Source of the DNA: Eledone cirrhosa
Lineage: Eukaryota
Direction of reading: 5' to 3'
Length of the DNA: 64,000 bases
NCBI GenBank assembly: GCA_964016885.1
Contig: OZ024740.1
Location: forward strand, 63,922,001 to 63,986,000
The position numbers and the translations under genes are program-made. Below the pieces are notes generated by a model. The model saw only the letters and a program-made list of their open reading frames with translations, searched no databases and was not told where the DNA came from. Shown in pieces: positions 3,255-64,000 of the stretch. Positions within the stretch are counted from its first letter, which is position 1; each line of letters starts with the position of its first letter.

Positions 3255-3287
3255 TCTCTTTTCCTCTTTTAACTTTTCAGCACCAAC

Positions 3288-6964: not shown

Positions 6965-7050
<86 letters not shown>

Positions 7051-7066
7051 CCTATCTCTCTCTCTC
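6965..7066 (+). repeat. (TATC)n microsatellite grading into (TC)n, spacer between A1 and A2
   Basis: Directly visible. Confidence 0.98.
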
Positions 7067-10000
7067 TGCCTGGCGCGTGGAACATCGCCGGTAAGATCTT
7101 TTGTAAATTTATATACGAAAAACAGAACAAATTGTTTGAAAAAACATATTATTTTGTAGATTAACCCCCAAGCTGAATTGTCAGCAGGGTGGTAATCCCA
7201 TTTTTCGCCCCTTTAAGGGCGAAAATTTAATTTAAGAATTGTTTTAAAATATCAAATTTTGCCAACTATAAAACATGAATAACACGAAAGGAACGCTGAA
7301 GAACGTCGACAGAGAAAAGAGAAAGTAAGAGGCAGATTTTAACGTTATATCTGCTTCTGCTACTATGGACGTCACCATAGATACGACTGTCAACAAAGGG
7401 AAAAAAATATTGCCACTTGAAGATTGTACAATTTCTACCGTCGAAGCAGTAAAAAAAAAATGAAAACACAGGAATTAAACCCATTAACATACATACACAT
7501 GAAAAAAAAAACATCAACTGATACATCTACACATAAAGTTTCACCTCATCAAGGAACTGAGATTTCCAACACCGAGGCTAGCAACGATAACAACAACAAC
7601 AACAGCAACACCACACACACACAAAAAATGTCTTTCGCTGAAACAGTGAACAAAAAACAAGATTTTATAAATCTTGACATCTCCAATGCGAGAGATATGC
7701 TCCAACAAGGGAGAAAATTTGTAACTTTCGAAGAAATGGGTGGGTTTAGAATTAACTCACCCCTTGAAATAAAAGAAGACACAGTTCGAAGATCAGTGAG
7801 CTTTAGGACTGTGTCCAATACCACGAGAAAGCCGATATTTGTTAGCCAAGGAGATATAGAAAATACCTTGAAAGAAATTCTAGCAAATATCGAATTTCTC
7901 CAACGAGGAAAACAGTACGGAAGTGTTTCCGTACTGTTTAAAAGCGAGGCACTCGCTCCAAAACATTCTGTGACACCAATAGTGTCAAAAGCATTCACCT
8001 TTTCCCCTACATACATGGGAAAAAGGACACACAAAAAAAATATACCACCAAACATTAACATCTGGTGGATCTTAGCTGGCTTCGTAGAGCCAGAAACTGA
8101 TATGATTCTTTCGATACAAAAGTCTATTCGACAAAGGTGGGCGGGTACTGATTTGGAGATTCTGTTGAAAATGAGGCTGGAGAGAATCTCCAAAATACCC
8201 GAAAGAGTCGTCATTGATGATAACAACAAAATAAACATTTCGGTAGAAGGACGAACATTTCATTGCTTTCGCTGTGGTAGCACAGCACACCTAAAAGCCT
8301 CTTGTCCTTCACAAACACACCACAACAACATCATTAAAAAAACACTATTACCAACACCAACACCAAAACAACCACCACCACCACAAGTACAACGACAGAC
8401 GAAACGAGCAACCACACCAAAACAAACAGCCACTCAACCAACAACAACAGGAAAAACAGAGACAACACCCCTGAAGAACACATCCCCCACCCCATCCCAC
8501 TCCATCAAACACTACCATAAACACACATACCGAAACACCACCACCACACAACATACCCCTACCCCACACTCCTGACGATGATTATTCATCGACGGATGAA
8601 GCTGCTTCTCCTTCTTTAAGTGAAGAAGAGGGAGAGCTGCGGAAATCTAAAAAAACAAAAAAAGAGACACCACTAACCCCCAAAACTCCAATCACCAACA
8701 CCAACACACAACCACAGACACAAACAACACCACAGTCAAAAATACCCCTACCAGCAAAACCAACATCAACACCAACACCAACACCACCCCAAACACAAGC
8801 ACCCACCATAAAAAGAAAACTCCCGGACGAACAACAAACTAAACAACACAACAAAAACACAAACAACAATACGCATACATCAACACAAACAACAAGAGTT
8901 TGATGGAGGTCATCTCCCAAAACCCCAAGGTGGAGACGGAGGGCAAAACTTTCGTCAAGGCAGAATCGTCTCCACACCTTAAACTTATAAGGGTTTCTAT
9001 GGAAACCTATAATAACCTGAAAAATAAATTTTCGCAGGACGTGGGCAACCCCTGCAAGAAACCCATCAACCGCGTCCTGTTAAAATGTTTCCCCACCCCA
9101 CCCAACACCCAAATGGAGATTGAAGAACCCGATATCCAGGAAACGAAAAGGTAAGTGCGTCTTTCGTCCCTTTTCTCCAACTCTTCTTCACCAACATGGC
9201 TAGTTTACGAGTTGGAAGCGTGAATGTGCGTGGCCTAGGGATACCCTGGAAACAGGGCCAACTTTTAAACTACCTTAGGTCACATGGTATGGATGTGATA
9301 GCCATCACCGAGTCCAGGATCCCCAACAGGCAGCAACTAACTCCCATCTTCGACGACTTTGAGATCTACGCATCTCTCTGTCAGCCAGGAGGTGGAGGGG
9401 AAGTGGCTATCATGTTTCGGAAGAACCTGGACGTCGAAGTACAGCAAGTACACTTGGACCCGGAGGGTAGACTGGTAGTCCTAGACGTGAACAGTATTGG
9501 AGGTGGAGCCTTCAGGCTGGTGGCCGTTTATGCCCCGACCGGGCAATCGCAATCACGGCCAGACTTCTTTAAGAGTCTAGAGTCTTTTCTGGGAACGTCT
9601 CGCTCCTTACTTTTAGTGTGGGACTGGAATGGTATCCTAGATGCACGATGGAACTATGTGGGAGCATGTCCCAGTAGAGGGGGGTGCAACAGCCTCAAAA
9701 CTTTAATCGGCCAATTCCAACTGGCCGATAGGTATGTACTGGATTTCCCGACTGCTCCACAGTGGACGTGGGAAAACCGCAGCGGGACATCTAGATCGTA
9801 TTTAGATAGGCTCTTCATTAGAGAAAAGGACAAGGAGATGTTAAGCTGTCCACGAATGCACATGGTTGCCTATTCAGATCACAAATTAGTCGTCTGCAGA
9901 GTCAACCGTGATAGAATACATAGACAAGGACCCGGATACTGGAAGCTGAACGTGTCGTTGCCGGCACGTAAAGCTTACAGTGAACGGATAAGTAGACTAG

Positions 10001-12773: not shown

Positions 12774-12809
<36 letters not shown>

Positions 12810-12810
12810 C
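12774..12810 (+). repeat. (TATC)n spacer between A2 and A3
   Basis: Directly visible. Confidence 0.98.
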
Positions 12811-15800
12811 CGGATGGTATAGACGTTCTTCACATCGGCTCCGCGATTATTGGATATATTACGTGTTAACAGTAAGTGTTTGTCTGTATTCTTGCGTTAT
12901 TGTGTTAATTAACCACCTTGCCTGGGTCTTCGGACATTAGGGTTAATCTATTTCTCCCCTTTTGGGATGAAATTTTTCATCCTAAAAATCTTGTGATTGT
13001 CTCTACGCTAGTGGTAATGGAAGCCATTACCACAGGCAACGATGACACGCCCACTAAACAAACCGAAGGAGAGCGGGTAGCGGAGGCAACAAACCTCCCT
13101 ACTGAAAGAATAATGATTATTAGAAACATTGAAAAAAATGGAGCCTAACCCTAATGAATAAAATGTGAAAAAAATTGACTCGGAGAAATTGCCAAAATTA
13201 ATGGATGCCGTTTCGACTTTTCACGGCGCCACGCCCACCAGCAAAGTTAAAAGAGAAGTAGTAGCTGTGACTACAAGTCTCAAGTATACTGAAAATATAA
13301 GTGAACATTTTGAAAAAATGGAGTCTAACCCCAACTTTGAAAAAATGTGAACGCATACACAAACAACAAAAAATGATAATGGTAACAACAAAAACACAAG
13401 GAAACAACCACATGTCGACAAATATAAACAAAGAGGGGGCGAACAAAATGACGTTCGCTCAAACTACGAAAAAACTCATTGTGTATGAACCTATTGACAT
13501 TTCGAACATGGCCCAGCAAATGGAAAATGCACGCAAGTATATAACTTTGGAGGAGAATGGTCTATTTTCTTTAAATTCTCCCCCAGAGCTAAAAAAGGAA
13601 AATAGCTTAAAACTATTATTTATAGGACAATATCCAACAAAACCCGTAAGCCAGTACAACTCACACAGACAGAGATTGAACTGGCTTTAAAAGATCATCT
13701 GAAAAATATTGTATTTATTCGGAAGGATAGACTCTACGGTAGTCTATCCATCCGAATGAAAGATAAATTGACGGCCGAAAAACATTCCCTGGCCCCAATT
13801 GTGTCCCCCTTATTTACCTTCTTCCCCACTTATTTGGGAAGAAGAACACAAAGATTGACCATACACAGTATCGATCCAGATATTAATTTCTGGGCGGTAC
13901 TGTGTGGCCTCTTCGACTTGAAAGAGGATGCAGTAATTTCGGTAGCTAAGTCTTCCAGCAACGTGTTCGATGGAACTAGCCTGCAAGTTCTGGTGCAAAT
14001 GCAGCCAGAACGAATTGCTAGGATCCCCGACCGCATATTGCTGGATGGGCTTGCCTACTTACACATCACAGTGGAGGATAGACGACCCGCTTGTTACCTC
14101 TGTGGTGGCAGAGGTCACCCGAAGGCTGCCTGTCCCCAAGCAAACAAAAAAACACCGAGTTTGCCCACACCAATAACTACAACACTACCAACACAACCTC
14201 CACCACCACCACAAAAACCACTAACACCACAAGTTAAAACACAACTGAAAACAATCCCACCCATTCCCACACACAGAAAACACATACAATAACACCCACA
14301 CCACAAACACGAGCCGAAAATGAACCCCTCTCCTCGAATACGGAAGACGACCCCTTTCGTCGTCAGACGAGGGGTGGGGTGGGGGTGGGGAACACTTTCA
14401 TAAAAAAAGAAAACACACCACAGGAACACAGATACAAACAACCCCTCCCAAATACATAACACAGACATCAGCACAAAAAAACACAACAACAGCAAACAAA
14501 AAACATCACACAAAAAGAAAAATATGCTTACACGTACATAAACACAATAAACAAAAAACTGTTAAACATTATTTATAATAACAACTTAATAAAAACGGAA
14601 GGTTCGAATTTCGCACAAGCAACGGGGCTTCCCCATCTAAAAATGATAAAAGCCCCAATGGACATTTACAAAACGTTAAAATACACTTTTAAAGAGGACG
14701 TGGGGCCCCCCTGCGTCAGACCCATTAATCATGTCCTCCTAACCCCCCCAGACACCCACACAACTCCAAACACCTCAACCCCACCACACACTGATGCCCC
14801 TACATTTCCACAACCCCCCCCCCCCCCCCCACCCCACCCAACAACCCACCCCCCACCCCCATGGAAATTGTGCGGCCCGGTCCCCCAGACGCAGACAGGT
14901 TGGTGCCTTTCTCTTTACCCAACATGGCTGTGTTGAGAGTAGGTTGTCTAAATGCGCGTGGCCTGGGCTCACCCTGGAAGCAAGCAATGCTTCTAAATGA
15001 CCTCAGGTCACGATGTATAAATGTCATGGTTATTTGCGAGGCCCGGATCAGCAGCGTGTGACAGCTGGCCCCCACCTTTGATGACTTTGAGATGCACGCA
15101 TCTCTCTGTCAGCCCGGAGGTGGGGGTGGGGTTGTCGTTCTGCTGCAAAAACATCTGGGTCTCGCTACACAGACGGTACACTTGGACCCGGAGGGTCGAC
15201 TTGTAGTTCTGGACCTTGGCAGTGGTAAAGGCGGCGCTTTTAGGCTGGTCGCCGTCTACGGCCCTTTTGGGTCAACGCGGCCGGACTTCTTCCATCATCT
15301 GGAGACTTTTCTAGGGACGTCCCGCTCCTTGCTTTTAGTGGGGGACTGGAATGGTATCCTAGATGCACGTTGGGACTATGTAGGGGCATGTCCTGATAGA
15401 GGCGGTTGTAACAACCTCAAGGGGTTAATCGGCCGATTCGACCTGGCCGATAGATATCGACTAGATTTTCCGACTGTGCCAACCTGGACTTGGAGAAACC
15501 ATAGCGGTCAATCTAGATCGTACCTAGATAGGTTCTTAGTTAGAAATAAAGATAGGGACTTTTTAAGTTGTCCAGAAATGCTCATGGTGGGCTATTCAGA
15601 CCACAATTTAGTGACCTCCATGGTCAACCTTGATAGAACGCTTAGACAGGGACCCGGTTACTGGAAGCTCAACTTGTCCTTACCGGCAAGTAAAGCTTAC
15701 AGGAACCGGATTAGTACTTTAGTTAAGGAGCGGTTGACGAGCGCCATCGTCAACAGCAGGTGGTGGGGCTCTCTCAAAAGAGAGAATAGAGTAGTTTCAA

Positions 15801-18661
15801 TAGGAGTTAGTAAGGAGTTAGCCTCAGATACAAATAGGAAGGAAAGGGAGTTGGTAGATAGTGTAGAAGAGGCAATTAGAAGCGGCGACGTAGCCAGAGT
15901 GCTAACGTCGAGAACGGCCTTGGGCCAGTTCTTCGACGCGAAACACGAAGGCTGCGTTGTCCGAAGCAAAATACGTGCCCTGGGAAACGAGGGGACCAAA
16001 GCTGTTAGCTGGGCCCTCGTGACAGAAGCCAAAAGTGGGATCAGAACCACTATCCGGTCTTTGCGAGACCAGGATGGACGGGTGATACTTGAACCTAAGC
16101 AGATGTGCGAGGCCTTTCAAAGGCACTTTGCCCGATTGTTCGGAAGGGACGAGGGGCCGGATGGGGATGTGGACCTAGGTCCATACCTCGACGGCCTGCC
16201 GCGTCTTTCGGACGAGGAGGCGAAGTCCTGCGAGAGGCCGATCTCAGGTGCTGAAATACGGGACGTGATGAGCCAATGCAGCAGACGCAAATCTCCGGGC
16301 CTTGATGGTCTTCCATACGAACTGTATTTAAGTATGCCGGACTTGTTCTTCGATCTCCCAGAAGCGGTCTACTGCAACTGGCAACAGAACGGGAGAATTC
16401 CCTGTCCTGTGACCACGGGCGTAGTCTCGCTAGTGAGGAAGGACGAGAACAAGGGGGATGAAATAAGTAATTTTAGGCCCATAACTCTGCTAAATGCAGA
16501 GTTAAAGATTTTGGCTAAGGTGTTAGCATAGAGGTTGGCGCTTGTCGTGGGCAACCTGGTGGGAGATGCGCAGACATGCGCCATCCCGTCCAGGTCCATT
16601 CACGACAACCTCCACCTCATGCGATACATCATAGAGAGGGTTGGCAACAAATCCGGCTTCGGTGGGGCCCTGATCAACTTGGATCAGTCTAAGGCGTTCG
16701 ATAGGGTCGACCATGGTTACCTGGATGCGGTGCTAGTGGCGGCAGGTTTCGGACCCGTTTTCAGGGGCTGGATCACTGCCATGCACAGTAGCCGCATCGG
16801 AGCCGTTCGAAATCACGCGGTCCATCCGACAGGTATGCCCTCTCTCCTCCCTTCTGTATGTATTGGCCCGACCTGAAAACGGACCCGTTTTCAGGGGCTG
16901 GATCACTGCCATGCACAGTAGCCGCATCGGAGCCGTTCGAAATCACGCGGTCCATCCGACAGGTATGCCCTCTCTCCTCCCTTCTGTATGTATTGGCCCT
17001 AGAGCCACTGCTGCGGAAGTGGGAGTTGTTACAGAGCATCCCTTTGGAACCGGGATTGCGGAAAGCGATGTCGGCCTACGCCGATGACGTGACAGTAATG
17101 GTGTCAACCGCCTCGGAAATCGGGGTGATCGGCACCTTACTGGAGGAATACGAAACGTTTACTGGGGCTAAGCTGAACCGGGATAAGTCAGTCGGTTTGC
17201 AACTCGGCGAGTGGAGGGGCAAACCGATGGCCTCCAACGGCGTCGTCGGACGTTGCTCGGGGTCTGGTTCGGGCCAGACCTCCAGGTGGAGAAGAACTGG
17301 GGTGAGGTATCGAACAGGGTGTTTGCGCTGTCGCAGAAGTGGGCTGAGGGCAAACTATCCCTGAAAGGTCGGGCGGAGGTGGCGAACGCTTATATAGCGT
17401 CCGTCATCTATTACCGCCTGACCGTCGTGCCTTGCCCAAGGGAAACGCTCACCAAAATGGAGCGCGCACTCTTCCAATTTCTTTGGAAGAAGCGGGCTCC
17501 TTTGGTGAGGAGATCCATCTGCTGTCAACACCCTTCGAAAGGAGGGCTGGGGATGCCACGGCTGCTGATGCGTAAACACGCATCAAGGCTACGGCACCTC
17601 CAGGTATTCCTCACCGGTCAACCGGTGTGGGCCCCGTTTATGAGGCGAGCCTTTCCGAGACTCGTCTCGCTCACCGAGCTGCAGTCCTGGGTCAAGCAAA
17701 GACCGAGAAAAGTGGGCGCCTGGCACACCGAGTGTGCCCAGGCGCTCACGGCTCTCTGGCAGGCGGACCCGACTATCGGTGGAGACTCCACCTCGTCATT
17801 CTATAGAGGGCTGGTGGTTAGTAGGTGCGACGACGCCCTCGGACAAGCTCTAGGCATGGAAGAAGACGAACTGGCCAGCCTATTCGGGAGGACATTTGGC
17901 ACGGGACCTATGGACAACTTCCAGATGTCCCTGGCCTGGCAGTCTACCGAGGGGCGCTGCCCGTTCGAGAAAAGCTCTACAGACAAGGGCGCCCGGGTAG
18001 GGACCCCTCGAAAAAAATCTGTCCCAGATGCGTGCGCGACGAGGAAACCGTTGCGCACCCATTGGTACACTGCTTGGGCGTTGCCGATCTGTGGGGCTAT
18101 GTCGAACGACTGCTGTCACTTGTGGGACCAATCCGGTTGACCACTGAGTCCATTGTAACGATCAAGCCGCCTCCCCCCTTCAAAAATGAAGGAGAAGCGG
18201 TCTTCCTCTGTGTAATAGCCATGGTGAAAAAGGTGGTATGGTGGACACGTTTGATAGGGCTGAGGTCGGACACCTTTCTCTCCGGCCAACAACTGGTCCT
18301 TTTCTTTAAATACCATTTTAAGAGAAGGATCAGAATGGAGAGAGAGAGAGGTGCTCTACCCCAGCAAGTTTTATGAAAGGTGGGTGAAAGTAGCGAGAAT
18401 GGCCCGTGTGAATGGGCCTTCTCTCTTTATCAGCCTGTAGGTGGAAAGGTTCAAGTTCAAAGGAACACCCCCTCTCTGTGCTCCTAAGGAAAAGGTTGCA
18501 CACTTTTTCGGGGGTGTGTGTAACCCCCAAAACGCCTCCTCTCTATTGAGGACTGTATTGTTAATTTTATATTTTTTATTTGTTTTTTACTCGTTCCTTT
18601 ATGTAACCCCCCCTTGTATTTGTCCCCTTCTTTTGTGCCCTCGTGGCAAATAAATAGAAAC

Positions 18662-18662
<1 letters not shown>
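12811..18662 (+). mobile_element. Full-length degraded Tx1-like retrotransposon A3
   Basis: ORF1 fragments (CYLCGGRGHPKAAC in 13756-14292); ORF2 fragments 14924-18440 with deletions and a 120-bp internal duplication; AATAAA at 18649-18654. Confidence 0.93.

Positions 18663-18732
<70 letters not shown>
18663..18732 (+). repeat. (TATC)n at the 3' end of the left array
   Basis: Directly visible. Confidence 0.98.

Positions 18733-47137: not shown

Positions 47138-47190
<53 letters not shown>
47138..47190. repeat. (AAT)n = (ATT)n flank at the 3' end of B1
   Basis: Directly visible. Confidence 0.98.
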
Positions 47191-47192
<2 letters not shown>

Positions 47193-47452
47193 TTTCTTTA
47201 TTAACCACAAGGGTTTACATAAAGTAGACATTAAGGACAGTGCAGGACAATGCAGGACGGTACAAATGGGCATTTCTGCGTGTAAAAAAACAAAAACAGA
47301 GGATGTAACAAAAATAACAATGAAAATAACAATGAAAAATTCCCCAATAGGGGGGAGACTTCGGAGGGACATTTGTGGAGAAAGCCCAGTAAAAAGCCAC
47401 AATGACCCTGACCACCAAGGCAAGTGCCCTCTCCCAGTTTTCCACCTTTAGT

Positions 47453-50400
47453 TTACAGATATATACTCAGAGTCGGCCCATTCACTCGGGCCATTCTTGC
47501 TTCTCTCACCCATCTTTCAACAAAATGCTGGGAAGAGAGCACTTCCCTTTCTACTCTGATTTTCCTTTTCAAATGAAATTTGAAAAAGTCAATCAGAGCA
47601 TCACCGAAGAGGTAAGTGCTCGTCTTCAGCCCTTTCAAACGTGTCCACCATACTATCTCTTTCGCCATGGCCACCAGACAGATAAAAACTGCCTGCCCTT
47701 CCCGGCTAAAGGAGGAGGGCGGGGCAATCCTCACGATGGACTCAGATGATAGCTGGATCCGTCCTAAACGCGACAGCAGGTGTTCGACATAAACCCACAA
47801 GTCAGCAATTTTCGGACACTGGACGAGTGCGTGCAGGACGGTTTCGTCGCCCTGCGCGCATCTCGGACATGCCCGGCTGACGGCACCTCCATGCCTGTAG
47901 AGTTTATCCCGAACTGGCAAGGCTCCTCGGTAGCACTGCCAGGCCAGAGATTTCTGGAAGTTGTCCATAGGCCCTGGCCCGAAAGTTCTTCCAAAGAGAT
48001 TGGCTAGTTGATTTTCGTCGACGCCTAGAGTTTCCCCAAGTACGTCGTCGCTCTTCCCCTCCACTAATCCTCTATAGAACGCCGAGGTGGAGTTTCCACC
48101 GATCACATTGCCCGATTGGTCGAGGGCTGTGAGCGCCTGAAGACATTCCAGTCTCCAAGCGCTCCCTCTCGGTCTTCGCTTGACCCAGGACTGCAGCTCC
48201 GTCAAGGAGACGAGCTGGGGAAAAACGTGTCTTGCAAACGGCGACCACACCTGATCACCGTCGAGGAAGAGGTGGAGATGTCGTAGCCTGAGCGCGTGTC
48301 TGCGCATCATCAGCCACGGCATGCCCAGCCCTCCACGTAGCGGGTGTTGACAGCAGATGGACCGCCTGACCATCGGAGCGCGTCCCTTCCACAAGAAGCG
48401 AAAGAGCAAACGCTCCAGCGCAGTCAGGCGAGGCTTAGGACAAGGTACGACGGTCAGGCGGTAGCAGATGACAGACGCGATGTACGCGTTAGCCACCTCC
48501 GCTCGACCTTTCAGGGATAGCTTCCTCTCCGCCCATTTCTGGGTGAGAGAAGCCACCCTGCTCGTCACCTCGTCCCAGTTTTTGTCCGTCTGGAGGTCCG
48601 GACCGAACCAGACCCCTAGCAATTTAACCGGTCCGTCCGTCCAGCGCCCGACGACGCTGTTGGACGGCATGGACCTGCCTCTCCAGGTGCCGAGCTGCAG
48701 GCCCACTGACTTTTCCTGGTTGATCATTGCTCCTGTCACCGCTTCGTATTCTCTTAGTGTAGTGCCGATCGCCTCGATGTGTTTGGCGTTCGACACCACT
48801 ACGGTGACATCGTCCGCATATGCTGACACGGATCATCCGCATCCTAGTTCGCGCGGGACTCCCCTCAACGTCTCCAGTTTGTGCAGTAATGGCTCGAGAG
48901 TCAATACGTACAAGAGGGACGAGAGGGGACATCCTTGGCGGACCGAGCGCATGATGTTGAACGGTTCCGACAGGTGACCGTTCACTCTCACCACAGAGCA
49001 GATCTCGCTGTGCATGGCAGCGATCCAGCCTCTGAAGACGGGCCCAAAGCCAGCCGCCCTCAGGACGGCCGCTAGGTAACGATGGTCGACCCTATCGAAA
49101 GCTTTCGATTGATCTAAATTGATCAAGGACCCACCCGTTCCAGGTTCCTTAGCTACCCTCTCTATGATGTATCGCATGAGGTGGAGGTTGTCGTGGATGG
49201 ATCTGTCGGGAATGGCGCATGTCTGCGCCTCTCCCACCAGACCACCAACGACAAGCGCCAACCTCTTTGCTAGCACCTTGGCCAAAATCTTGAACTCTGT
49301 GTTTAGCAGAGTTATGGGCCGGAAATTGTCTATGTTATCCCCCTTGTTCGGATCCTTTCTCAGCAGTGCCACCGCTCCTCGGCTCACAGAACTGGGAATT
49401 CTCCCGTTCTGTTGCCAGTTGCAGTAGACGTCCGCCAAGAGGCCTCCGAACAAGTCTGGCATCTGTACGTAAAGTTCATAGGGCAGACCATCCAAACCAG
49501 GCGATTTACCCCTTGTGCAGCCAGTCATTGCCTCCCTTACTTCAGCGGCTGTTATCGGCTTTTCGCAACACTTCGCCTCAGTGGCCGAGAGCCGCGGCAG
49601 TCCGTCGAGGTAGACACTAAAGTCCATCCCTCTACCCGGCCCCCCGCTGCCCCCGAACAGCTGAGCGAAGTGTCGCTGAAAAGCTTCACACATTTGCCCG
49701 GGATCGAGTAGCATGCGCCCGTCGTGGTCCACCAAAGACCGGATCGTGGCTTTGTTGCCACGACGCGCCTCCGCCACTCGGACCCATTGAACGGCTTTCG
49801 TCCCCTCGTGTCTGAGAGCACGCACCCTAGCTCTGACAACGCAGCCTTCGTGCTTTGCATTGAAGAATTGGTCAAGGGCCAATTTCGCCGCAAGCACGTC
49901 GGTCGCAATGCCTTTGCTAAGCGCCTCGTCTAATTTTCTAACTAGTTCTCCCTCTGCTCTATTTTTCTCTATTGCTAAAGCCTTACTAAACCTAATCGAT
50001 TCTATTCTTATCGCTCTTTTCAGAGCAAACCACCACTTGTTGTTGACAATGGCCCCCGTCAACGCCCGCTTAACTAGTTCGCTAATCCGGTCTCTGTAGG
50101 CCTTGCGCGCTGATAAGGACGCGTTTAGCTTCCAGTAGCCGGGTCCTCGTCTATGAAGCCTATCTAAGTCAAGCACACAGGTCACGAATTTGTGGTCCGT
50201 GTAGCTGACTATCTTGAATTGTGGACAGCCTATGCTAGACCTATCTATTTCCCTACAAAATACTCTATCTAGATATGATCTGGATGACCCTATGCGGTTT
50301 GTCCAAGTCCACATTGGCACATTCGGGAAATCCAATCGGTACCTGTCAGACAGTTCAAAACGCCTGAGCAGGTTGGTGAGGCTCTTGCACCCTCCACCCC

Positions 50401-50872
50401 TATCCGCTAATCCCACACAGTCCCAGCGTGCATCTAAGATCCCGTTCCAGTCGCCCACTAACACTAAAGAGCGGGACGTTCCAAGAAAGGTCTCCAGACG
50501 CCGGAAGAAATCAGGCCGCCCTGCTCCTGTCGGGGCATAGACGGCCACTAGCCTGAAAGCTTGCCCGTCTCCGCTGGTCACGTCCAGCACCACCAGCTTA
50601 CCCTCTGGGTCCAGGAAGATGGCCCGTATGGCGAGATCCAAACCTCTCCGAAAAAGCACAGCAACTCCTCCACCGGATCCAGGACGGCTGGGAGATGCGT
50701 ACACATCGTAGCCGCCGAAGATCGGTGCGAAGGCCCGTGCTTCGGAGATTCTGGTCTCGCTGATGGCCACTACATCTATGTCTAGTGACCTGAGGTCGTT
50801 GAGCAGGTGACCCTGCTTCCATGACGACCCCAAGCCACGCGCATTTATGCTGCCTATTCTGAGTGAGGTCAT
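47453..50872 (-). pseudogene. B1 ORF2 (APE-RT-zf) with a single nonsense codon just before YADD
   Basis: The 679-aa and 458-aa ORFs are in frame; B3 has AGA at the same codon. Confidence 0.92.
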
Positions 50873-50907
50873 GTTTAAAATAGAGTGGAAAAGATGGGAA
50901 AGACCAC

Positions 50908-53006
50908 TTACCGTACTTTTGGTAGAGGAGGGATGGTTTTTACATCCCTTTTCACTTGATCGTCTGGTGAAGGGACCGTTGAATCGTCCCTTCGGCTGGT
51001 CGTCGGCTCTTCTAAGAGAATGTCTGAGTATACTCTTCGATTGATGGTTCCTCCTAGGTCCCTGAAATCACCAACTGCGTTGGGGAATTTCGTTTTAATG
51101 TTTGTGTATTGTTTCTGTGCTATTTTTAGCAGTCTTATGTTAATTGGCGTTTTGATTGGTGCTGGTATTATGTAGTCCTGTTGTGAAATGTCTGTGTGTT
51201 CAATTATGTAAGTCATTAGTTTCTTGTTGTGTGTATTTATTGCCGTGCATTTGTTTTTCTGGGGGTGGGGTGTGGTTCTGCTATTTTCTTGTCGTTGTTG
51301 CTGGGTGTGTGTGTTTTGTTGTTGTGTTTGCGATGTTGGTGCTTGTGGTGGTGGTGTTGAAGGTGTTGTTGGCGGTGGGGTTGTCGCCGGTGGTGATGGT
51401 GGTGCTAGTGTGGGTGGTGATGGTGTTGGTGTTGTTGCTGCTGTGGGTCTCTTTGCAGTAGACTTTACCCTTTTCTCATTTCTTTCCTCCCTTTTCAAAG
51501 GCGACGATGCGCTGCTTCTGCGTTTGTGCCTTCTTACGACCTTTTGCCATCTCTCTCCCACCTCACACTCCATGTCTGATTCTGTGAGGTCGGGGAGGGG
51601 TACCAACTCCACTCTTTCACTTGTTGTTGTTGGTGATGTTGGCACTGGAGTCTCTGTTGCAGCTGCATTTGGTATTGCTGTTGTTGTTGTTAGTATTTCC
51701 ACTGCTGCTGCTGTTTTTGATTTCCGTGGAGTGGGTATGGGTGCCACGGGCCTATCGTTCCTGGTTGCCGCTTGTCCTGTTGCTGGTAGCCGTGGAGCCG
51801 GATTCGGAAGGAGGGGGGTTTTCTCCTTTCTCAGGGTCTTCTCGTTGCAGAAGGCCCTGAGGTGAGTCTTCGATCCACAGCGAAAGCATTTCGGGCGTTT
51901 GCCCTCAACACTTATGGGCAGTTGAGTGCCGTTATCGAAGTCTATCACATCCGGGATAGCTTCGATGCACTCCTGGTTGGTTTGGATTAGCATCTCAATG
52001 GAGGAGCCGACCCAATCTTCTCTTACTTTTTTCTGTACTTGCAGTACAGTTGTTTTGTCCTCGATTCCGACGAGGACAGACGCGGCCAGCCAAGAAGGGG
52101 TCATTCCGGGGGGGGGACGTGGGTCAGTTTGACCCTCACAATTTTTTGCCCACAGTAGGAGGGCACCAACACCATTTCCTCGCTCCTTAGTGTCACTACT
52201 GATTGGGCCTTTGCCTCCTGGGGTGTGGCAAAAAGTACGTCTACGGTGGCATATTTTTTGCCTCGGGTGATGTGCGTTTTCCGCTGCCACACAGACCCCA
52301 AGGCTTTTTGTATTTGGGCCTCTGTGGCTCTTTCCACCCTACGGGATTTTGTACTTACTGTACGGTACGTGACCGTACAGTGCTCTTGGGTTTCGAAAAA
52401 TGTTTCCGCTGCCTTGCAGATTGCTCGGTGTCCGTTCTTTGTCACCATCTTCTTCGCTTCCTCTAATTCCTCATTTGTTATGAGGATTGTTTCCAAGTTT
52501 TTCGCAATACCTGCAAATGAGATTGGTTTTTCTCTGCTGTTGTTGTTGTCGTCAGAGCTGCTGGTACTTTTGTTGTTGCTGCAGGTACTACGACTACTGC
52601 CTCCGCCGCTGTTGCTGTGGTTGTTGTTGGTGTTGCTGCTGCTAATGCTGTTGTTGTTTATGCTGCTGGTGATGCTGTTGCGGCTGCTACTGTTGTTTTC
52701 ATTGTCACTGTTGCTGTTGTTATTACGGCTGCTACTGCTATTATTCCTGACGTCAGACGAATGAACTGGGTTTTCGTATTTCCCGCACACCTGTTTCGTC
52801 GCTGTCGTCGTCGTCGTGGAGAAATCTTGCACGCTTTGCACGAGACTTTTCTTTTCTTTCGTCACTTGCGAAAGAGAAGGGAGGGAGAGAGACACATTTA
52901 AAGAAGGGAGGGAGAGAGACAATCTTCTCTCTGCTGTAGTGATGATTGAGGAAGAAGAAGACGGAATGAGTGGGAGTGACGTATGAAATTTCTTTTTCGT
53001 AGCCAT
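50908..53006 (-). pseudogene. B1 ORF1 (CCHC knuckle CFRCGSKTHLRAFC), one frameshift
   Basis: ORFs 52101-53006 and 50908-52290 join at THVPPP/PPPGMTP. Confidence 0.88.
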
Positions 53007-53221
53007 GTTGTTTTTTGTTTAAAATGAAATTTTGGGTACAAAACCCCAATAACTGGTTATTTAACCCCGAAGGGCCAAATAACGGACAGAAAGACCCCTC
53101 TCACGAGGAGGAGGGTGTCTTTATCAACAATTTGGTTCAAGTTTTAAACAATTTACAATTGTTTTAACGGTTAAAAATTACTATACCTTACAGAGCCGAG
53201 CCTCCGTAAACCATGGCATTC

Positions 53222-53251
<30 letters not shown>
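53222..53251. repeat. (AAT)n spacer between B1 and B2
   Basis: Directly visible. Confidence 0.98.
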
Positions 53252-53253
<2 letters not shown>

Positions 53254-56200
53254 TTTCTTTATTGGCCACAAGGGCTGACATCAAGAAAAACATCACAGAC
53301 GGAACAGAACGGTACGATGTGGGTTTTGTGCGTGTAAATATTTTTATTATTTATATAAGAAAAGAAAAAAGACATAAAACATATATATATATAAACAATA
53401 AAATGAAAATTGAAACAATGAAAACTTCCCCAATAGGGGGAAACCTCCGAGGGTTACTCGTGGCGAAAACCACACAAAAGACCACGGCCACCCTGACTAC
53501 CAGGGCAAGCGCCCTCTCTCAATTTTTCCATCTCTCAAACTACAGACGTATATTCAGAGTGGTCCCGTTCACTCGGACCATTCTCGCTACATTCACCCAC
53601 CTTTCAACAAACTTGCTAGAAAGCAGCACTTGCCTCTCCACCCTGATTTTCCTCTTCAAGTGAAACTTGAAAAAGTTAATCAGGGATTCGCCGAAGAGGA
53701 AAGTGTTTGTCTTTAATCCTTTTAACCTTGTCCACCACACAATCTCTTTCGCCATGGCCACCAGGCAGATGAAAACCGCCTGCCCTTCCTCCTCAAAGGA
53801 AGACGGCGAGACCATCTGCACAATGGACTCAGTCGACAACCGGATCAGTCCCACACGTGACAGCAACTGTTCGACATAGCTCCACAAGTCAGCAATGCTC
53901 GGGCACTGAACGAGTGCGTGCACAACGGTTTCGTCGCTATGCGCGCATCTCGGACAGGCTCGGCTGACGGCACTTCCGTGCCTGTAGAGCTTATCTCGAA
54001 CTGGCAGCGCTCCCCGGTAGCACTGCCAGGCCAGGGATTTTTGGAAGTTATCCATAGGCCCCGGGCTGAAAGTTCTCCGGAAGAGAGCAAGCAGCTGATC
54101 TTCTTCGACGCCCAGGATCTCTCCGAGAACGTCGTCGTTCTTCCCCTCCACTAGTCCTCTATAGAACGCCGAGGTGGATGTTCCACCGATACTGGTGCCC
54201 AACTGGGAGAGGGCAGTGAGCGCCTGGAGACATTCCAGTTTCCAAGCGCTATCCCTCGGTCTTTTTCTGACCCAGGACTGCAGCTCCGTCAAGGAGACGA
54301 GCTGTGGGAAAATGTGCCTGGCGAACGGCGACCACACCCGTTCACCATCAAGGAAGCACCAGAGATGTCGCAGCCTCAGCGCATGTTTGCGCATCATCAG
54401 CCATGGCATGCCCAATCCTCCACGCAAGGGGTGTTGACAGCAGATGGATCGTCTGACCATGGGAGCGCGTCCCTTCCACAAAAAGCGGAAGAGGAGGCGC
54501 TCCCTTTTGGTGAGAGTTGGGCTGGAGCAAGGGACGACGGTGAGGCGGTAGCAGATGACGGATGCGATGTACGCATTCGCCACTTCCGCCCGGCCTTTCA
54601 GGGACAGCTTCCTCTCAGCCCATTTCTGGGTGAGGGAGGCCACCCTGCTCGTCACCTCGTTCCAGTTTTTCTCCATCTGGAGGTCCGGTCCGAACCAGAC
54701 CCCGAGCAATTTAACCGGTCCGTCCGTCCAACGCCCCACGACGCTGTCGGACGGCATGGACTTGCCTCTCCAGGTGCCTAGCTGCAAGCCCACCGACTTT
54801 TCCTGGTTTATCTTTGCTCCTGTCACCGTTTCGTATTCCTTGATAGTGGTGCCGAGCATCTAGACGTGTCTGGTGCTCGACACCACCACGGTGACGTCGT
54901 CAGCGTAAGCCGACTCGGATTTCCCGCATCCTAGTTCGCGTGGGACGCCCCTCATCGCCCCCAGTTTGTGCAGTAACGGCTCGAGAGCCAATACGTACAA
55001 GAGGGACGAGAGGGGACAACCCTGGCGGACTGAGCGCATGATGCTGAACGGCTGCGACAGGTGACCGTTCAGCATCACAACTGAGCAGATGTCGCTGTAC
55101 ATTGCTGCGATCCAACGCCTGAAAACGGGCCCGAAACCGGCTGCCTCGAGGACCGCCGCCAGGTACCGATGGTCGACCCTATCGAATGCTTTGGATTGAT
55201 CCAAGTTGATCAGGGCCCCACCCTTGCCAGGTTCCTTAACCACCCTCTCTATGATGTATCGCATGAGGTGGAGGTTGTCGTGTATGGATCTGTCCGGGAT
55301 GGCGCATGTCTGCGCCTCTCCCACCAGACCCTTGACGACAAGCGCCAACCTCGTTGCTAACACCTTGGCCAAAATCTTGAACTCTGCGTTTAGCAGAGTT
55401 ATGGCCTGAAATTATCAATAACATCCCTCTTGTTCGGGTCTTTTCTCAGCAGCGCCACTGCTCCCCGGCTCACAAAACTCGGAATGCTCCCGTTCTGCTG
55501 CCAGTTGCAGTAGACGTCTGCCAAGAGGTCACCGAACAAGTCTGGCATAAATGCATAAAGCTCGTAGGGCAGACCATCTAAACCTGGCGATTTACCTCTT
55601 GTGCAGTTAGCCATCGCTTCCCGTATTTCACCGGCTGTTATTGGCTTTTCGCAACATTGTGCTGCGGTCGTCGAGAGCCGAGGCAGTCCGTCGAGGTATG
55701 CACTGAAGTCCATGTCCCGATCCGAGCCGCCGCCGCTCCCGAACAGTTCAGCAAAGTGCTGCTGAAAAGCTTCACACATCCGCTCGGGTTCGAGCATCAC
55801 GCACCCGTTTTGGTCAGACAAAGACCGAATTGTGGCTTTATTGCCACGTCGCGCCTCTGCCACCCGGGCCCATTGGACGGCTTTTGTCCCCTCGTGTTTC
55901 AGAGCACGCGCTTTAGCTCTGACAACGCAGCCTTCGTGTTTTGCGTTGAAGAATTGGTCGAATGCCAATCTCGCCGCAAGCACGTCGGTTGCGATGCCTG
56001 TCCTAAACGCCTCTTCTAGCTTTCTGACTAGGTCTCCCTCTACTCTATTTTCCTCTATCACTACTCCTTTGCTAAACCTAATCGACTCTACTTTAATTGC
56101 CCTTTTCAGGGCGAACCACCACCTGTTGTTGACGACCGCCCCCGTCAACACCCGCTTAACTAATACGCTAATCCGGTCTCTGTAGGCCTTGCGCGCCGGG

Positions 56201-59184
56201 AAAGACGCGTTCAGCTTCCAGTAACCAGGCCCTTGTCTATGAAGTCTGTCTATGTCGATCTCACAGATCACAAATTTGTGGTCTGTGTAGTCGACTATTT
56301 TAAATTGTGGACAACTTATACTAGCCTTATCTAGTTCCCTGCAGAATACCCTATCTAGATACGATCTGGATGACCCGATGCGGTTTGTCCATGTCCACAT
56401 TGGCACATTCGGGTGATCCAGTCGATACCTGTCCGACAGTTCAAAACTTCTGAGCAGGTTGGTGAGGCTCTTGCACCCTCCTCCCCTATCCACTAGCCCC
56501 ACACGATCCCAGCGTACATCCAAGATACCGTTCCAGTCGCCCACTAACACTAAAGAGCGGGACGTTCCAAGAAAGGTCTCTAGACGTCTGAAGAAATCTG
56601 GCCGTCCTGCCCCTGTTGGGGCGTAGACGGCTACTAGCCTGAAAGCATTGCCTTCGCTGCCGGTCACGTCCAGCACCACCGACTTACCTTCTGGGTTCAG
56701 GAAGATGGCCCGTATCACGAGATCCAAGCCTCTCCGAAAAAGGACGGCAACCCCTCCCCTCGATCCTGGACGGCTGGGAGATGCGTATACATCGTAGCCG
56801 CCGAAGATCGGTGCGAAGGCCCGTGCCTCGGAGATTATGGTTTCACTGATGGCCTCCACATCTATGTTTAGTGACCTGATGTCATTGAGCAGGTGACCCT
56901 GCTTCCAAGATGACCCCAGGCCACGTGCATTTATGCTTCCTATTCTGAGTACAGCTATGTTGGATGAGAAACGGGGCAAATGAGAAAGGGTCACTTACCT
57001 TGTTCGTGTGGTGAAGGGACAGTAGAACCGTCCCTTTCGCTGGTCATGGGTGTTTCCAAAAGGATGTCAGTGTATATCCTCTTGGTAACCGTCCCTCTGA
57101 AGTCTCCAACTGCGTTGGGGAATTTTTGTTTTAAAGGTTTGTATTGTTCTAATGAGATTTCGATGATGCTTATGTTTGACGGGAGAGTTCTTGGTGTTTG
57201 TGGGATGTAGTAATTTTTTTCCGTGATGTCTGTGTGCTGCTTTATATATTTTATGAGTTCTTTTTTTGCTATGTTTATGGCTGTGTACTTTTTGGGGGGA
57301 GGGGTGATTTTGTTGCCGTTTTCTTCTTGTTGCTGTTTGGTGTGTGTGTCTTGTTGTGTTTGCGTTGTTGGTGTTTGTGGTGGTGTTGCTGCAAGTTTCC
57401 TTGCTGCCTTTACCCCTCTTTGTATGCCTTCGCTTTTGGAGGGTGAATCTAAAGGTTTTTTTGTTTTTTGTTTTTTTGTGGCAGACTGTTTGCCATGTCA
57501 CTCCCGCCTCAAACTCTATGTCGGATTCTGTGGCGTCTGGGAGGGGTATGTGCTCCACGGCTGTTGGTGGTGGTAGTGGAGCCCTCTTCGGCAATGTTGT
57601 TGCTGGTGAAGCTATTTCAAATGTAGCTATTGGTGTTGCCGCTACTGATGATGCTGCTTTAGTTATCCGTGGCCTTGGTACGGGTGCTACGGACGTTGCC
57701 CTCCTACTCACCGTGGAAGGGGCTTCTTCGTTTGTTGCCTGTCCTGCTCTTGGTAGCAGCGGACCAGGTATTGGAAGGAGAGGGGCCCTCTTCGGTGTCT
57801 TCTGCGGGCAAAAGGCCCCGAGGTGACCTTTCGATCCACAGAGATAACATTTTGGCCGTCTTCCTTCTACACTTATAGGGAGTTGGAGTCCTTGCTCAAA
57901 GTCTATGATATCGGGGATAGCCTCGATACATTCCTGGTCAGTTTGTATAAGCATTTGCATGCCTATACCTGACCAGTTCTCTCTCCCTATTTTTTCTACT
58001 TGCAGCATGGTCGCCCTGTTCTCAATTCCAGTAAGGACAGACGCGGCCAGCAAAGGTATGGGCACGTCGGGTGGGACCTGGGTCACTTTGACCCTCACAA
58101 TTTTCTGCCCGCAGTAGGAGGGCACCAAGACTAACTCCTCACTCTTTAGGGTTTCCAAAGAGGGGTGGCGAAAAGTACGTCTACTGTGGCGTACTTTCTG
58201 CCTCGGGTGATGTGGGTTTTGCGTGCCCAGACGCACCCCAAGACCTTTTGGATTTGAGCCTCCGTGGTTCTCTCCACTCGATGTGAGATTTTGCTTACGG
58301 TGCGGTAAGTCACCGTTCGTAGCTGCTGGTCCTTGAAAAAATCGGGTGGAGGTTTCAGGGAAACTCTATTTGCGCTTCTTGTCCCATGGCCCTTGCGACT
58401 GCCATCTTCTCCTCTGTGACTAACACTGTCTCGATATTTCGGGCGACACCTGCAAAAGAAGTGGTCCCTTTTTCAGCAGCACCACTATTGCTGCCGCTAC
58501 TGGTCTTACTGGTGGTGCTGAGGTCACTATTACAGGTATCGGTGTCATTGTTGTTCTTTTCGCTGGTACAGTTGTTGGGGTTGTTTTCGTTGATAATGTT
58601 GCTGCTGTTACTGTTATTGTGGCTGTTGTTATTATTGTTGTTTTTGTTGATACTGTTCCTACTATTATTGTTGTTGTGGCTGTTGTTATTGTTATTGTTA
58701 TTGTCGTTCTCGACCTTACCGCTGTTATTTTTGTTATTGTCGTTCTCGACTTTACCGCTGTTATTTTTGGTGTTGTTGTTGGTGATGTTGTTGGTGTTAT
58801 TGTTGGTGTTGTTTGTGTTAGAAATATTTGTTAATTTTAAATCTGTAACAATCTTTTTTTCCTTTGTAATATTTTCGTTTATATTTACCTCCGCTGGAAC
58901 GCTGTCTTGTTGACATGCTGATAAAGTCTCCCTCTCTCTGTGTTGTCTGACAGCGCTCTCTCTCTTTTTTGTGTTATCCATGTTGAAATTTTTCAGAAAA
59001 TATTTTTACACAAATACGAATAAAGGGGTGCCGTATTATTTACTAGTGAACCCCTGTATTAGGTGGGTCACTTCTTCTAAACTTTTATCAAATTTAAAAC
59101 TTGAATAAAAGGTTTAGAACGGTTGAAAAAGAGGTAAAACGTTGAAAAAGACTGGAGGCGATAAGAAGCGTGGCTTCACCGACC
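53252..59184 (-). mobile_element. Full-length degraded Tx1-like retrotransposon B2 (distinct subfamily)
   Basis: ORF1 pieces 58355-58981 and 57067-58236 (CYLCGSKGHLGAFC); ORF2 pieces 55399-56958, 54860-55372, 53540-54859; ORF2 start reads ATA where the others have ATG. Confidence 0.93.

Positions 59185-59217
<33 letters not shown>
59185..59217. repeat. (AAT)n spacer between B2 and B3
   Basis: Directly visible. Confidence 0.98.
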
Positions 59218-59218
<1 letters not shown>

Positions 59219-62200
59219 CTTTCTTTATTAACCACAAGGGTTTACATAAAGTAGACATTAAGGACAGTACAGGACAATACAGGACGGTACAAATGGGCAT
59301 ATCTGCGTGTAAAAACAAAAACAGAGGATGGAACAAAAAATAACAATGAAAAATTCCCCAATAGGGGGAGACTTCGGAGGGACATTTGTGGAGAAAGCCC
59401 ATTAAAAGGTCACAGTGACCCTGACCACCAGGGCAAGTGCCCTCTCCCAGTTTTCCACCTTTAATTTACAGACACATACTCAGAGTAGGCCCATTCACTC
59501 GGGCCATACTTGCTTCTCTCACCCATCTTTCAACAAAATGCTGGGAAGAGAGCACTTCCCTCTCTACCCTGATTTTCCTTTCCAAATGAAATTTGAAAAA
59601 GTTAATCAGGGCATCACCGAAGAGGTAAGTGCTCGTCTTCAGCCCTTTCAAACGTGTCCACCATATTATCTCTTTCGCCATGGCCACCAGACAGATACAA
59701 ACTGCCTGCCCTTCCCGGCTAAAGAAAGAGGGTGGGGAAATCCTCACGAGGGACTCAGCTGATAGCTGGATCCGTCCTACACGCGACAGCAGGTGTTCGA
59801 CATAAACCCACAAGTCAGCAATACTCGGACATTGGATGAGTGCGTGCAGGACGGTTTCGTCGCCCTGCGCGCATCTCGGACATGCCCGGCTGACGGCACC
59901 TCCATGCCTGTAGAGTTTATCCCCAACTGGCAAAGCTCCTAAGTAGCACTGCCAGGCCAGGGATTTCTGGAAGTTGTCCATAGGCCCCGGCCCGAAAGTC
60001 CTTCCGAAGAGATTGGCTAGTTGATTTTCGTCGACGCCTAGAGTTTCCCCAAGTACGTCGTCGCTCTTCGCCTCCACTAATCCTCTATAGAACGCAGAGG
60101 TGAAGTTTCCACCGATCACATTGCCCGATTGGTCGAGGGCTGTGAGCGCCTGAAGACATTCTAGTCTCCAAGCACTCCCTCTCGGTCTTCGCTTGACCCA
60201 GGACTGCAGCTCCGTCAAGGAGACGAGCTGGGGAAAAACGCGTCTAGCAAACGGCGACCACACCTGATCACCGTCGAGGAAGAGGTGGAGATGTTGTAGC
60301 CTGAGCGCGTGTCTGCGCATCATCAGCCACGGCATGCCCAGTCCTCCACGTAGCGTGTGTTGACAGCAGATGGACCGCCTGACAATCGGAGCGCGTCTCT
60401 TCCACAAAAAGCGAAAGAGCAAACGCTCCAGCGCAGTCAGGCGGGGCTTAGGACAAGGTACGGCGGTCAGGCAGTAGTAGATGACGGACGCGATGTACGC
60501 GTTAGCCACCTCCGCTCGACCTTTCAGAGATAGCTTCCTCTCCGCCCATTTCTGGGTGAGAGAAGCCACCCTGCTCGTCACCTCGTCCAAGTTTTGTCCG
60601 TCTGGAGGTCTGGACCGAACCAGACCCCTAGCAATTTAACCGGTCCGTCCGTCCAGCGCCCGACGACGCTGTTGGACGGCATGGACCTGCCTCTCCAGGT
60701 GCCGAGCTGCAGGCCCACTGACTTTTCCTGGTTGATCATTGCTCCTGTCACCGCTTCGTATTCTCTTAGTGTAGTGCCGATCGCCTCGATGTGTTTGGCG
60801 TTCGACACCACTACGGTAACATCGTCCACATATGCTGACACGGATCTTCCGCATCCTAGTTCGCGCGGACCCCCCTCAACGTCTCCAGTTTGTGCAGTAA
60901 TGGCTCGAGAGTCAATACGTACAAGAGGGACGAGAGGGGACATCCTTAGCGGACCGAGCGCATGATGTTGAACGGTTCCGAAAGGTGACCGTTTACCATC
61001 ACCACAGAGCAGATGTCGCTGTCCATGGCAGCGATACAGCCTCTGAAGACGAGCCCTAAGCCAGCCGCCTTCAGGACTGCCGCTAGGTAACGATGGTCGA
61101 CCCTATCGAAAGCTTTCGACTGATCTAATTTGATCAGGGACCCACTCGTACCATGTTCCATAGTTACGCTCTCTACGATGTATCGCATGAGGTGGAGGTT
61201 GTCGTGGATGGATCTGTCGGGAATGGCACATGTCTGCGCCTCTCCCACCAGACCACAAACGACAAGCGCCAACCTCATTGCTAGCACCTTGGCCAAAATC
61301 TTGAACTCTGTGTCTAGCAGAGTTATGGGCCTGAAATTATCTATGTTATCCTCCTTGTTCGGATCCTTTTTCAGCAGCACGACCGCTCCTCGGCTCACAG
61401 AGCTGGGAATTCTCCCGTTCTGTTGCCATTTGCAGTAGACGTCCACCAAGAGGCCTCCGAACAAGGCTGGCATCTGTACGTAAAGTTCATAGGGCAGACC
61501 ATCCAAACCAGGTGATTTACCCCTTGTGCAGCCAGTTATTTCCTCCCGTATTTCAGCGGCTGTTATCGGCTTTTCGCAACACTCCGTCCCAGTGGCCGAG
61601 AGCCGCGGCAGTCCGTCGAGGTAGACACTAAAGTCCATCCCTCGATCCGGCCCGCCGCTGCCCCCGACACGGCTGACCGAAGTGTCGCTGAAAAGCTTCA
61701 TACATTTGCCCGGGTTCGAGTAGCATGCGCCCCTCATGGTCCACCAAAGACAGGATCGTGGCTTTGTTGCCACGACGCGCCTCCGCCACTCGGGCCCATT
61801 GAACGGCTTTCGTCCCCTCGTGTCTGAGAGCACGCACCCTAGCTCTGACAACGCAGCCTTCGTGCTTTGCACTGAAGAATTGGTCAAGGGCCAATTTCTC
61901 GAAAGTACGTCGGTCGCGATGCCTTTGCTAAGCGCCTCGTCTAATTTTCTAACTAGTTCTCCCTCTGCTGTATTTTTCTCTATAGTTAAAACGTTACTAA
62001 TCCTAATGGACTCTATTCTAATCGCTCTTTTCAGAGCAAACCACCACTTGTTGTTGACGATGGCCCCCGTCAACGCTCGCTTAACTAGTTCGCTAATCCG
62101 GTTTCTGTAGGCCTTGCGCGCTGGTAAGGACGCGTTTAACTTCCAGTAGCCCGGTCTTCGTCTATGAAGCCTATTTAAGTCAATCACACAGATCACGAAT

Positions 62201-64000
62201 TTGTGGACCGTGTAGCTGACTATCTTGAATTGTGGACAGCCTATGCTAGACCTATCTATTTGCCTACAAAATACTCTATCTAGATATGATCTGGATGACC
62301 CGATGCTGTTTGTCCAAGTCCACACTGGTACATTCGGGAAATCCACCTGTCAGACAGTTCAAAACGCCTGAGCAGGTTGGTGAGGCTCTTACACCCTCCT
62401 CCCCTATCCGCTAATCCCACACAGTCCCAGCGTGCATCTAAGATCCCGTTCCAGTCGCCCACTAACACTAAAGAGCGGGACGTTCCAAGAAAGGTCTCCA
62501 GAAGCCGGAAGAAATCAGGCCGCCCTGTTCCTGTCGGGGCATAGACGGCCACTAGCCCGAAAGCTTGCCCGTCTCCGCTGCTCACGTCCAGCACCACCAA
62601 CTTAGCTTCTGGGTCCAGGAAGATGGCCCGTATGGCGAGATCCAAACCTCTCAGAAAAAGCACAGCGACTCCTCCCTCCGATCCAGGACGGCTGGGAGAT
62701 GCGTACACATCGTAGCCGCCGAAGATCGGTGCGAAGGCCCGTGCTTCGGAGATTCTGGTCTCGCTGATGATCACTACTTCTATGTTTCGTGACCTGAGGT
62801 CGTTGAGAAGGTGGCCCTGCTTCCATGACGACCCCAAGCCACGCGCATTTATGCTGCCTATTCTGAGTGAGGTCGTGTTGAAATGGAGTGGAAAAGATGG
62901 GAAAGACCACTTACCGTACTTCTCGTAGAGGAAGGATGGGTTCTCCATCCCTTTCCACTTGATCGTCTGGTGAAGGGACCGTTGAATCGGCCCTTCGGCT
63001 GGTCGTCGGCTCTTCTGTGAGTATATCCGAATATACTCTCCGGTTGAGTGTCCCTCCTAGGTCTCTGAAATCACCAACTGCGTTGGTGAATTTCGTTTTA
63101 ATGTTTGTGTATTGTTTCTGTGCTATTCTTACCAGTCTTATGTTCGTTGGTGTTTTTATTGGTGCTGGTATTATGTAGTGGTGCTGTGAAATGTCTGTGT
63201 GTTCAATTATGTAAGTCATTAGTTTCTTGTTGTGTGTATTTATTGCCGTGCATTTCTTTTTCTGGGGGTGGGGTGGGGTTCTGCTATTTTTTTGTCGTTG
63301 TTGCTGGGTGTGTCTGTTTTGTTGTTGTGTTTGCGATGTTGGTGCTTGTGGTGGTGGTGTTGAAGGTGTTGTTGTTGGCGGTGGGGTTGCCGCCGGTGGT
63401 GATGGTGGTGCTAGTGTGGGTGGTGATGGTGTTGGTGGTGTTGCTGCTGTAAGTCTCTTTGCAGTAGCCTTTACCCTTTTTTTCATTTCTTCCCTCCATT
63501 TTCGAAGGCGACGATGCGCTGCTTCTGCGTTTGTGCCTTCTTGCGACCTTTTGCCATCCATCTCCCACCTCACACTCCATGTCCGATTCTGTGAGGTCGG
63601 AGAGGGGTACCAGCTCCACTCTTTCACTTGTCCTTGTTGGTGATGGTTGCAGTGGAGTCTCTGTTGCAGCTGCAGTTGGTATTACTGTTGTTGTTGTTAA
63701 TACTTCCACTGCTGCTGCTGTTCTTGATTTCCGTGGCGTGGGTATGGGTGCCACGGACCTATACTTCCTGCTTGCCGCCTGTCCTGTTGCTGGTAGCAGT
63801 GGAGCCGGTATCGGAAGGAGGGGGGTTTTCTCCTTTCTCAAGTTCTTCTCATTGCAGAAGGCACTGAGGTGAGTCTTCGATCCACAGCGAGAGCATTTCG
63901 GGCGTTTGCCCTCAACACTTATGGGCAGTTGAGTGCCGTTATCGAAGTCTATTACATCCGGTTGGTTTGAATTAACATCTCAATGGAGGTGCCTACCCAA
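59218..64000 (-). mobile_element. Degraded Tx1-like retrotransposon B3, same subfamily as B1 (5' end beyond window)
   Basis: Collinear with B1; multiple frameshifts, YVDD, ORF2 start reads ACG. Confidence 0.93.

Follow-up and report, generated by a model that had tools for sequence, protein, structure and literature searches.

In the window analysed here (a stretch of 64,000 nucleotides), two arrays represent related retrotransposon lineages that occupy different simple repeats. The B lineage sits in (ATT)n and its sister lineage A sits at TATC repeats, likely through endonucleases that have diverged in nicking, and A has undergone a further switch to a MITE; we put the probability of this reading at about two in three. 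The association of clade with repeat, the sister relationship, the presence of ATT at either end of full-length B copies and the fixed orientation are observed directly, and the endonuclease is the likely driver of the switch between ATT and TATC. In such a process the B endonuclease would nick the AAT strand, the nick would prime reverse transcription at the 3' end of the RNA, and another nick, some 15-19 nt from the first, would duplicate part of the tract. As each insertion would leave two usable tracts, later copies of any ATT subfamily could enter, with unchanged orientation, between older copies, so that polar, mixed arrays would build up.

We begin with the right array. The minus strand carries three L1/Tx1-like copies (E4, E3 and E2, Table 1) separated by pure (AAT)n as read on the plus strand, as an earlier note on this DNA had described, and the coordinates and identities confirm its order B1-B2-B1: E2 and E4 share 93.7% identity across 4.9 kb, and E3 reaches 80-82% with either of them. 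In the neighbouring DNA (AAT)14 occurs at 65306 and again at 71423, and the extended array has four copies in the order B1-B1-B2-B1 (E1-E2-E3-E4), of which the B1 copies are mutually 94-95% identical. Stops or frameshifts are present in every copy. An R2-like element on the opposite strand (about 71465-76550) adjoins the 5' tract of the array and is followed by (AAT)30 and then by a SINE-like tail in reverse orientation; the B-type stack may have been seeded in this tail past the R2-like element.

Table 1. Coordinates of the arrayed copies, their repeats and coding features (window positions unless stated)
Feature	Position	Strand	Remarks
(ATT)17+AT tract	47138..47190	-	53 nt; 3' end of the right array, unique flank beyond
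Copy E4, subfamily B1	47191..53221	-	full length, 6,031 bp; ORF1 split across two frames; one ORF2 stop
E4 ORF2	47453..50872	-	start at 50872; APE endonuclease PF03372, reverse transcriptase (RT) PF00078, C-terminal CCHC zf-RVT PF13966 (Pfam)
E4 endonuclease hairpin WTWTNRIGSSRS	50280..50311	-	aligned to the L1 betaB6-betaB5 loop
E4 ORF1	50908..53006	-	one CX2CX4HX4C knuckle, about 51850-51888
(ATT)10 spacer, E3/E4	53222..53251	-	
Copy E3, subfamily B2	53252..59184	-	full length, 5,933 bp; ORF2 with a frameshift and a stop
(ATT)11 spacer, E2/E3	59185..59217	-	
Copy E2, B1-type	59218..64000	-	continues to 65305 past the window end; several frameshifts
Copy E1, subfamily B1	65348-71422		beyond the window, in neighbouring DNA
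A-type comparison array joined by (TATC)n	1..18732	+	extends upstream to about -11,900
A-type copy A0		+	end of the copy
A-type copy A1	1121-6964	+	
A-type copy A2	7066-12773	+	
A-type copy A3	12810-18662	+	

The left array holds the A-type copies, of which A1 has both ORF1 and ORF2 open. Long identical ORF2 stretches common to the two arrays had been reported, and two of them are indeed found in both: IHDNLHLMRYIIER in three left copies and two of the three right copies, and PGPMDNFQKSLAWQCY at two left positions and in all three right copies. Two further claims hold in part. The mutual exclusion of the repeats stands in that the right region is without TATCTATC and the left array without ATTATTATT, but isolated TATC tetramers do occur inside elements; the supposedly identical 3' terminus is reduced to the last 25 nt or so (CCCYTGTGGYYAATAAAGAAA), as DNA alignments of A to B end at about the end of ORF2. 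Within its ORF2 (window 16750-16999), copy A3 also carries 120 bp duplicated perfectly in tandem, together with a short deletion.

The copies of the right array are supported as independent insertions. On other contigs, 13 copies match the 3' 712 bp of E4 at 99.7% identity, and one dispersed copy matches E3 at 99.3%, so E4 and E3 are far closer to dispersed copies than to their array neighbours, which are 80-95% alike; the argument against tandem duplication that had been drawn from the alternating subfamilies is thereby upheld. That the arrays grew by tandem duplication or unequal crossing-over, with the repeat inherited along with the copy, is barely credible: A0 and A1 of the left array, at 99.95% identity, would be in keeping with it, but the identities just given contradict it for the right array, and solitary copies show the same flanks. 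Adjacent sampled matches less than 8 kb apart on one strand belong to the same class in 23 of 26 pairs.

We turn our attention to the genome (3.0 Gb), for which the counts come from motif and pattern searches plus copies fetched by position. The 3' flank is ATT in 30/30 of the nearest B1 copies and in 30/30 of the nearest B2 copies (one with two units only), and it is TATC in 30/30 of the nearest A1 copies, in each case for the first 30 of about 40 matches. A motif common to all lineages has 13,166 matches genome-wide; the first 100 of these, which all lie within the initial 27 Mb of a single contig and over-represent the MITE clade (18/100 versus about 330 ends genome-wide), were placed on a tree built from coding sequence alone. 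The 37 sampled copies of the B clade comprise 32 with ATT tracts, 3 with a single ATT, 2 with no junction and none with TATC. Among the 44 sampled A copies, 43 junctions are TATC-like (scored loosely), one copy has no junction and none has ATT. All 18 MITE-clade copies lie at the 72-bp repeat described below, and the one remaining copy is without its 3' end.

Genome-wide, the B end joined to ATT3 gives 4,742 forward rows and 8,746 mostly doubled reverse rows, which amounts to about 9,000 sites, and the A end joined to ATCTATC is found 8,642 times. The B end joined to ATCTATC occurs 15 times (by upstream sequence 10 are A-type and none is a verified B, with the other 5 too short for assignment), and the A end joined to ATT3 occurs at 17 sites (3 true A, 6 of the ATT lineage D and 8 unassigned). 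One of the three true A copies, L271, sits at TATCATTATT, which is similar to both targets. These counts rule out a chance association. The earlier note had proposed to look for a strict clade-repeat association on a tree, and the association is near-strict in both the 100-copy sample and the genome-wide counts; A copies commonly at ATT or B copies at TATC, which would have spoken against its claim, are not found, because none of the 15 is a verified B copy and only 3 of the 17 are true A. The consensus of the TATC-class junction is TATCTAT, with three perfect TATC units in only 11 of the 44 sampled A copies. Some A-type copies (L149, L174, L175, L203) are embedded on both sides in other TC/TA-rich minisatellites, and the specificity of A is loose.

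The repeat (ATT)n is most likely the target of B rather than merely its tail, since ATT is present at both ends of full-length copies. It lies at the 5' junction in 33/33, the 5' ATT is at least 18 nt long in 32/32, and a duplication outside the tracts is seen in 0/32; full-length A copies have a TATC-like 5' flank in 16/16. We consider it distinctly improbable that ATT is instead made by the elements (a 3' tail together with 5' read-through from an upstream tract), with later elements entering these tails and no pre-existing target. Such an origin would suit the 5'-truncated B copies, where ATT is at the 5' junction in only 6/24 rows (a few of them repeated or mis-chained) and missing from 18/24, against its presence in all full-length copies; at the solitary copy L067, reads and contigs of four runs yield no joint across the element and hence no empty allele, which favours neither view, the contigs being too short to span it. 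Such an origin fits poorly, however, with the 0/32 duplications outside the tracts in a family that does make duplications (L191), with 5' tracts that continue into unrelated SINE tails and compound microsatellites, and with the short truncated copies L080, L239 and L268, which have the repeat on both sides, and the arrays would still require ATT targeting.

The truncated A copies, like the truncated B copies, tell against a pre-existing target, with a 5' TATC in 11/29 rows, some of which are not true truncations. Interruption of truncated B copies by later insertions was considered as the reason for their missing 5' ATT and rejected, as the missing 5' part is absent within 10 kb upstream in 13/14 of the copies fetched. 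Long duplications at truncated B copies were likewise sought and are found in none except L104. Deletion of the target, or a later deletion, could explain truncated junctions without the repeat. Unique duplications with a length of about 15-19 nt, which start at the TATC/ATT junction, are present in L191, L160, L227, L241 and L271, and a shorter one in L104.

The elements are L1-group non-LTR retrotransposons. They have two ORFs, an APE endonuclease, RT and C-terminal CCHC in ORF2, AATAAA near the 3' end, 5' truncation and target-site duplications, the last of which are clear in single cases (L191) and weak in bulk (22 candidates versus 6-13 across 20 shuffles). Among solved structures, the endonuclease is best matched by L1 EN variants. 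ORF2 has its closest named relative in a hypothetical protein of Argonauta hians (58%), which suggests an octopod host, and another named match is an auto-named grape 'Transposon TX1' protein (22%). The Tx1 clade features an ORF1 with a CCHC zinc knuckle. Here ORF1 has no match in Pfam, and a CX2CX4HX4C knuckle is visible in the ORF1 of A1, E3 and E4; with the repeat-directed target preference, which is also a mark of that clade, both A and B probably belong to Tx1, an assignment made by these features.

Between A1 and B1 the endonuclease is 63.5% identical and the RT 76.3%. A comparison of 17 A and 16 B open-frame sequences gives 33 fixed endonuclease differences, among them the tip of the hairpin, which is I in B and S in A. 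Grafting of the betaB6-betaB5 loop is reported to alter L1 specificity, point mutations in human L1 left the nicking pattern unchanged, and additional factors contribute to human L1 targeting (PMC1950540).

A rival reading, which we regard as unlikely, is that the endonucleases of A and B are similarly loose and that the 3' end of the RNA, with read-through AUU or UAUC repeats, pairs with the nicked strand, so that the switch is one of the RNA tail. Transcripts from an array would carry the lineage's own repeat, and the 3' tract is exactly 53 nt long and ends in ATTAT in 4 of the 30 youngest B1 copies (L001, L005, L008 and L010, at unrelated sites), so the RNA may supply some of the tract. The degenerate A junctions point the same way, and 3' microsatellite-like repeats have been proposed to act in RTE site choice (PMC6007223). 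Against this stand the fixed clade-specific changes in predicted DNA-contact loops, and the MITE clade joins one fixed phase of the 72-bp unit despite other TA-rich sites within it. Divergence of the endonucleases is still the reading that we prefer, and since there are open-frame copies and, as a read-out, thousands of insertion sites, swaps can test the enzyme against the RNA end.

The phylogeny agrees with two sister groups. In the whole-ORF2 tree, SH-aLRT support is 99 for A with the MITE clade, 89 for the ATT lineages (B and D) and 100 for both together; this tree and the RT tree are quick trees without bootstrap, and in the former, which includes outgroups, the ATT/TATC split is basal. 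The endonuclease tree agrees (A plus the 72-bp clade as sister to the ATT lineages), and the two trees together bear out the claim that A and the ATT lineages are sisters. In the RT-only tree the chimeric copy L196 (a lineage D element with a 3' part from B3, both of ATT type) groups with A, so that the monophyly of the ATT lineages rests on the support of 89. Natural A/B recombinants or endonuclease swaps are not found among the 100 sampled copies. Subfamily B3 (L170, L171, L186, L238 and others) has a B1-like ORF2 with an unrelated ORF1 and 5' region, and subfamily A4 has two 5' versions; these patterns suggest exchange of 5' modules.

The segregation of lineages by repeat is real. The niche partitioning that had been proposed for it is not supported: TATC is used by at least seven A subfamilies and ATT by at least four (B1, B2, B3 and D), and these ATT tracts also serve an unrelated element of R2-like type. 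With many subfamilies coexisting on each repeat and ATT shared by an unrelated element, avoidance of competition is not indicated.

A clade nested in A has a third target, absent from the earlier note: it sits in a piggyBac-like MITE, at one fixed position of the 72-bp repeat inside it, which would represent a second switch within A. Exact matches to the 72-bp unit number 29,356, and the unit makes up the interior of an element that is flanked by TTAA and has inverted ends of sequence CCCTTTAGCATTTA. The piggyBac-type arrangement, with TTAA on either side and the inverted termini CCCT...AGGG, is complete in an empty MITE (L275), and one or both ends are present in L141, L143, L181, L204 and L221. 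One 5' phase and one 3' phase are common to 18/18 sampled copies, and among the roughly 330 clade ends genome-wide a single phase is seen, by eye, in 93 of the first 94 listed. Relative to A1, the clade is 81% identical in the endonuclease and 89% in the RT, with 19 clade-specific residues. Its copies cluster near contig ends (at 0.6-31 Mb and 431-434 Mb on the 443-Mb contig C1). It is possible, and we propose it only tentatively, that a single octopod LINE radiation made both switches (ATT versus TATC, and TATC to MITE) through few changes in endonuclease loops, with open-frame copies on each side; if so, the targeting of microsatellites and of transposons would be open to reprogramming and to mapping per residue.

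Several known systems can be compared. Kibi in (TC)n and Koshi in (TTC)n are elements of teleost fish, both present in fugu and in Tetraodon, and crocodilian Tx1 families insert into (TTCC)n/(TTTC)n (PMC4494074; PMC3812793). The present elements resemble these, as described there, in that related APE-type Tx1 families use different microsatellites. They differ in their targets, with junctions at ATT, TATC or the MITE repeat and not in (TC)n or (TTC)n, in a mollusc-like genome, in thousands of copies each, in young copies and in polar arrays of multiple subfamilies, the comparison being one of targets. With the fish elements published, the phenomenon is of a known kind; the (ATT)n and TATC targets are new. 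Microsatellite recognition by APE-type retrotransposons is, by one account, not well understood (PMC3812793). Most of the known relatives with a specific target are distant from one another, whereas here three targets occur in one genome with endonucleases 56-81% identical. The system also explains the multi-copy LINE stacks of this genome, in which microsatellites are split and multiplied by insertions.

For the MITE clade, the counterparts are Xenopus Tx1L, which inserts in Tx1D, a non-autonomous piggyBac element, and the crocodilian Tx1-Mar, which inserts in a Mariner MITE (PMC4494074). Like Tx1L, the clade uses a fixed site within a non-autonomous transposon that has TTAA flanks and CCCT ends; unlike Tx1L, it derives from TATC-associated relatives, and the two cases would represent convergence. 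Dong belongs to the R4 clade, with a C-terminal restriction-like endonuclease (RLE) and no APE, an architecture not found in B, which has an N-terminal APE domain. B does share its microsatellite with Dong elements, which are described in (TAA)n of silkworm, mosquito and snail (PMC3812793). For Octopus vulgaris, one account lists 13 L1-Tx1 families with recent activity along with 5 Dong-R4 families, and the word 'target' is absent from its main text (PMC13282606). We find no description of octopod Tx1 target specificity in the literature searched; Repbase, supplements and subscription journals lie outside this scope and may contain such families.

Other elements lie between the two arrays. An open RT of 1,140 aa at window 30806-34228 (minus strand) has its best matches among R2 proteins and is flanked, in its own reading direction, by (TAA)n; a second copy of a 361-bp 5' segment lies at 35293-35653. 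Elsewhere its 3' end is often found reversed, directly after B-type ATT tracts, and the R2-like elements at ATT lie opposite in strand to B. A second, broken RLE-like element (36125-38860 on the minus strand, and 39508-41122), with partial duplicates, lies beside (ACAT)23 at 35807-35898 and is possibly a further microsatellite-associated family. At 27989-30424 (plus strand) there is an RT with C-terminal C2H2 fingers, which we take to be RTE-like, whose 5' part is replaced at an (ATGT)n tract. Finally, a SINE-like repeat of about 190 bp (41790-42549, 23846-24290 and many loci) ends in GGCCTTGTGCC...AGAAAC/AATC plus (ATT)n; it bears a loose likeness to the Tx1 3' end, and it often adjoins B-type ATT tracts by its head or its tail.
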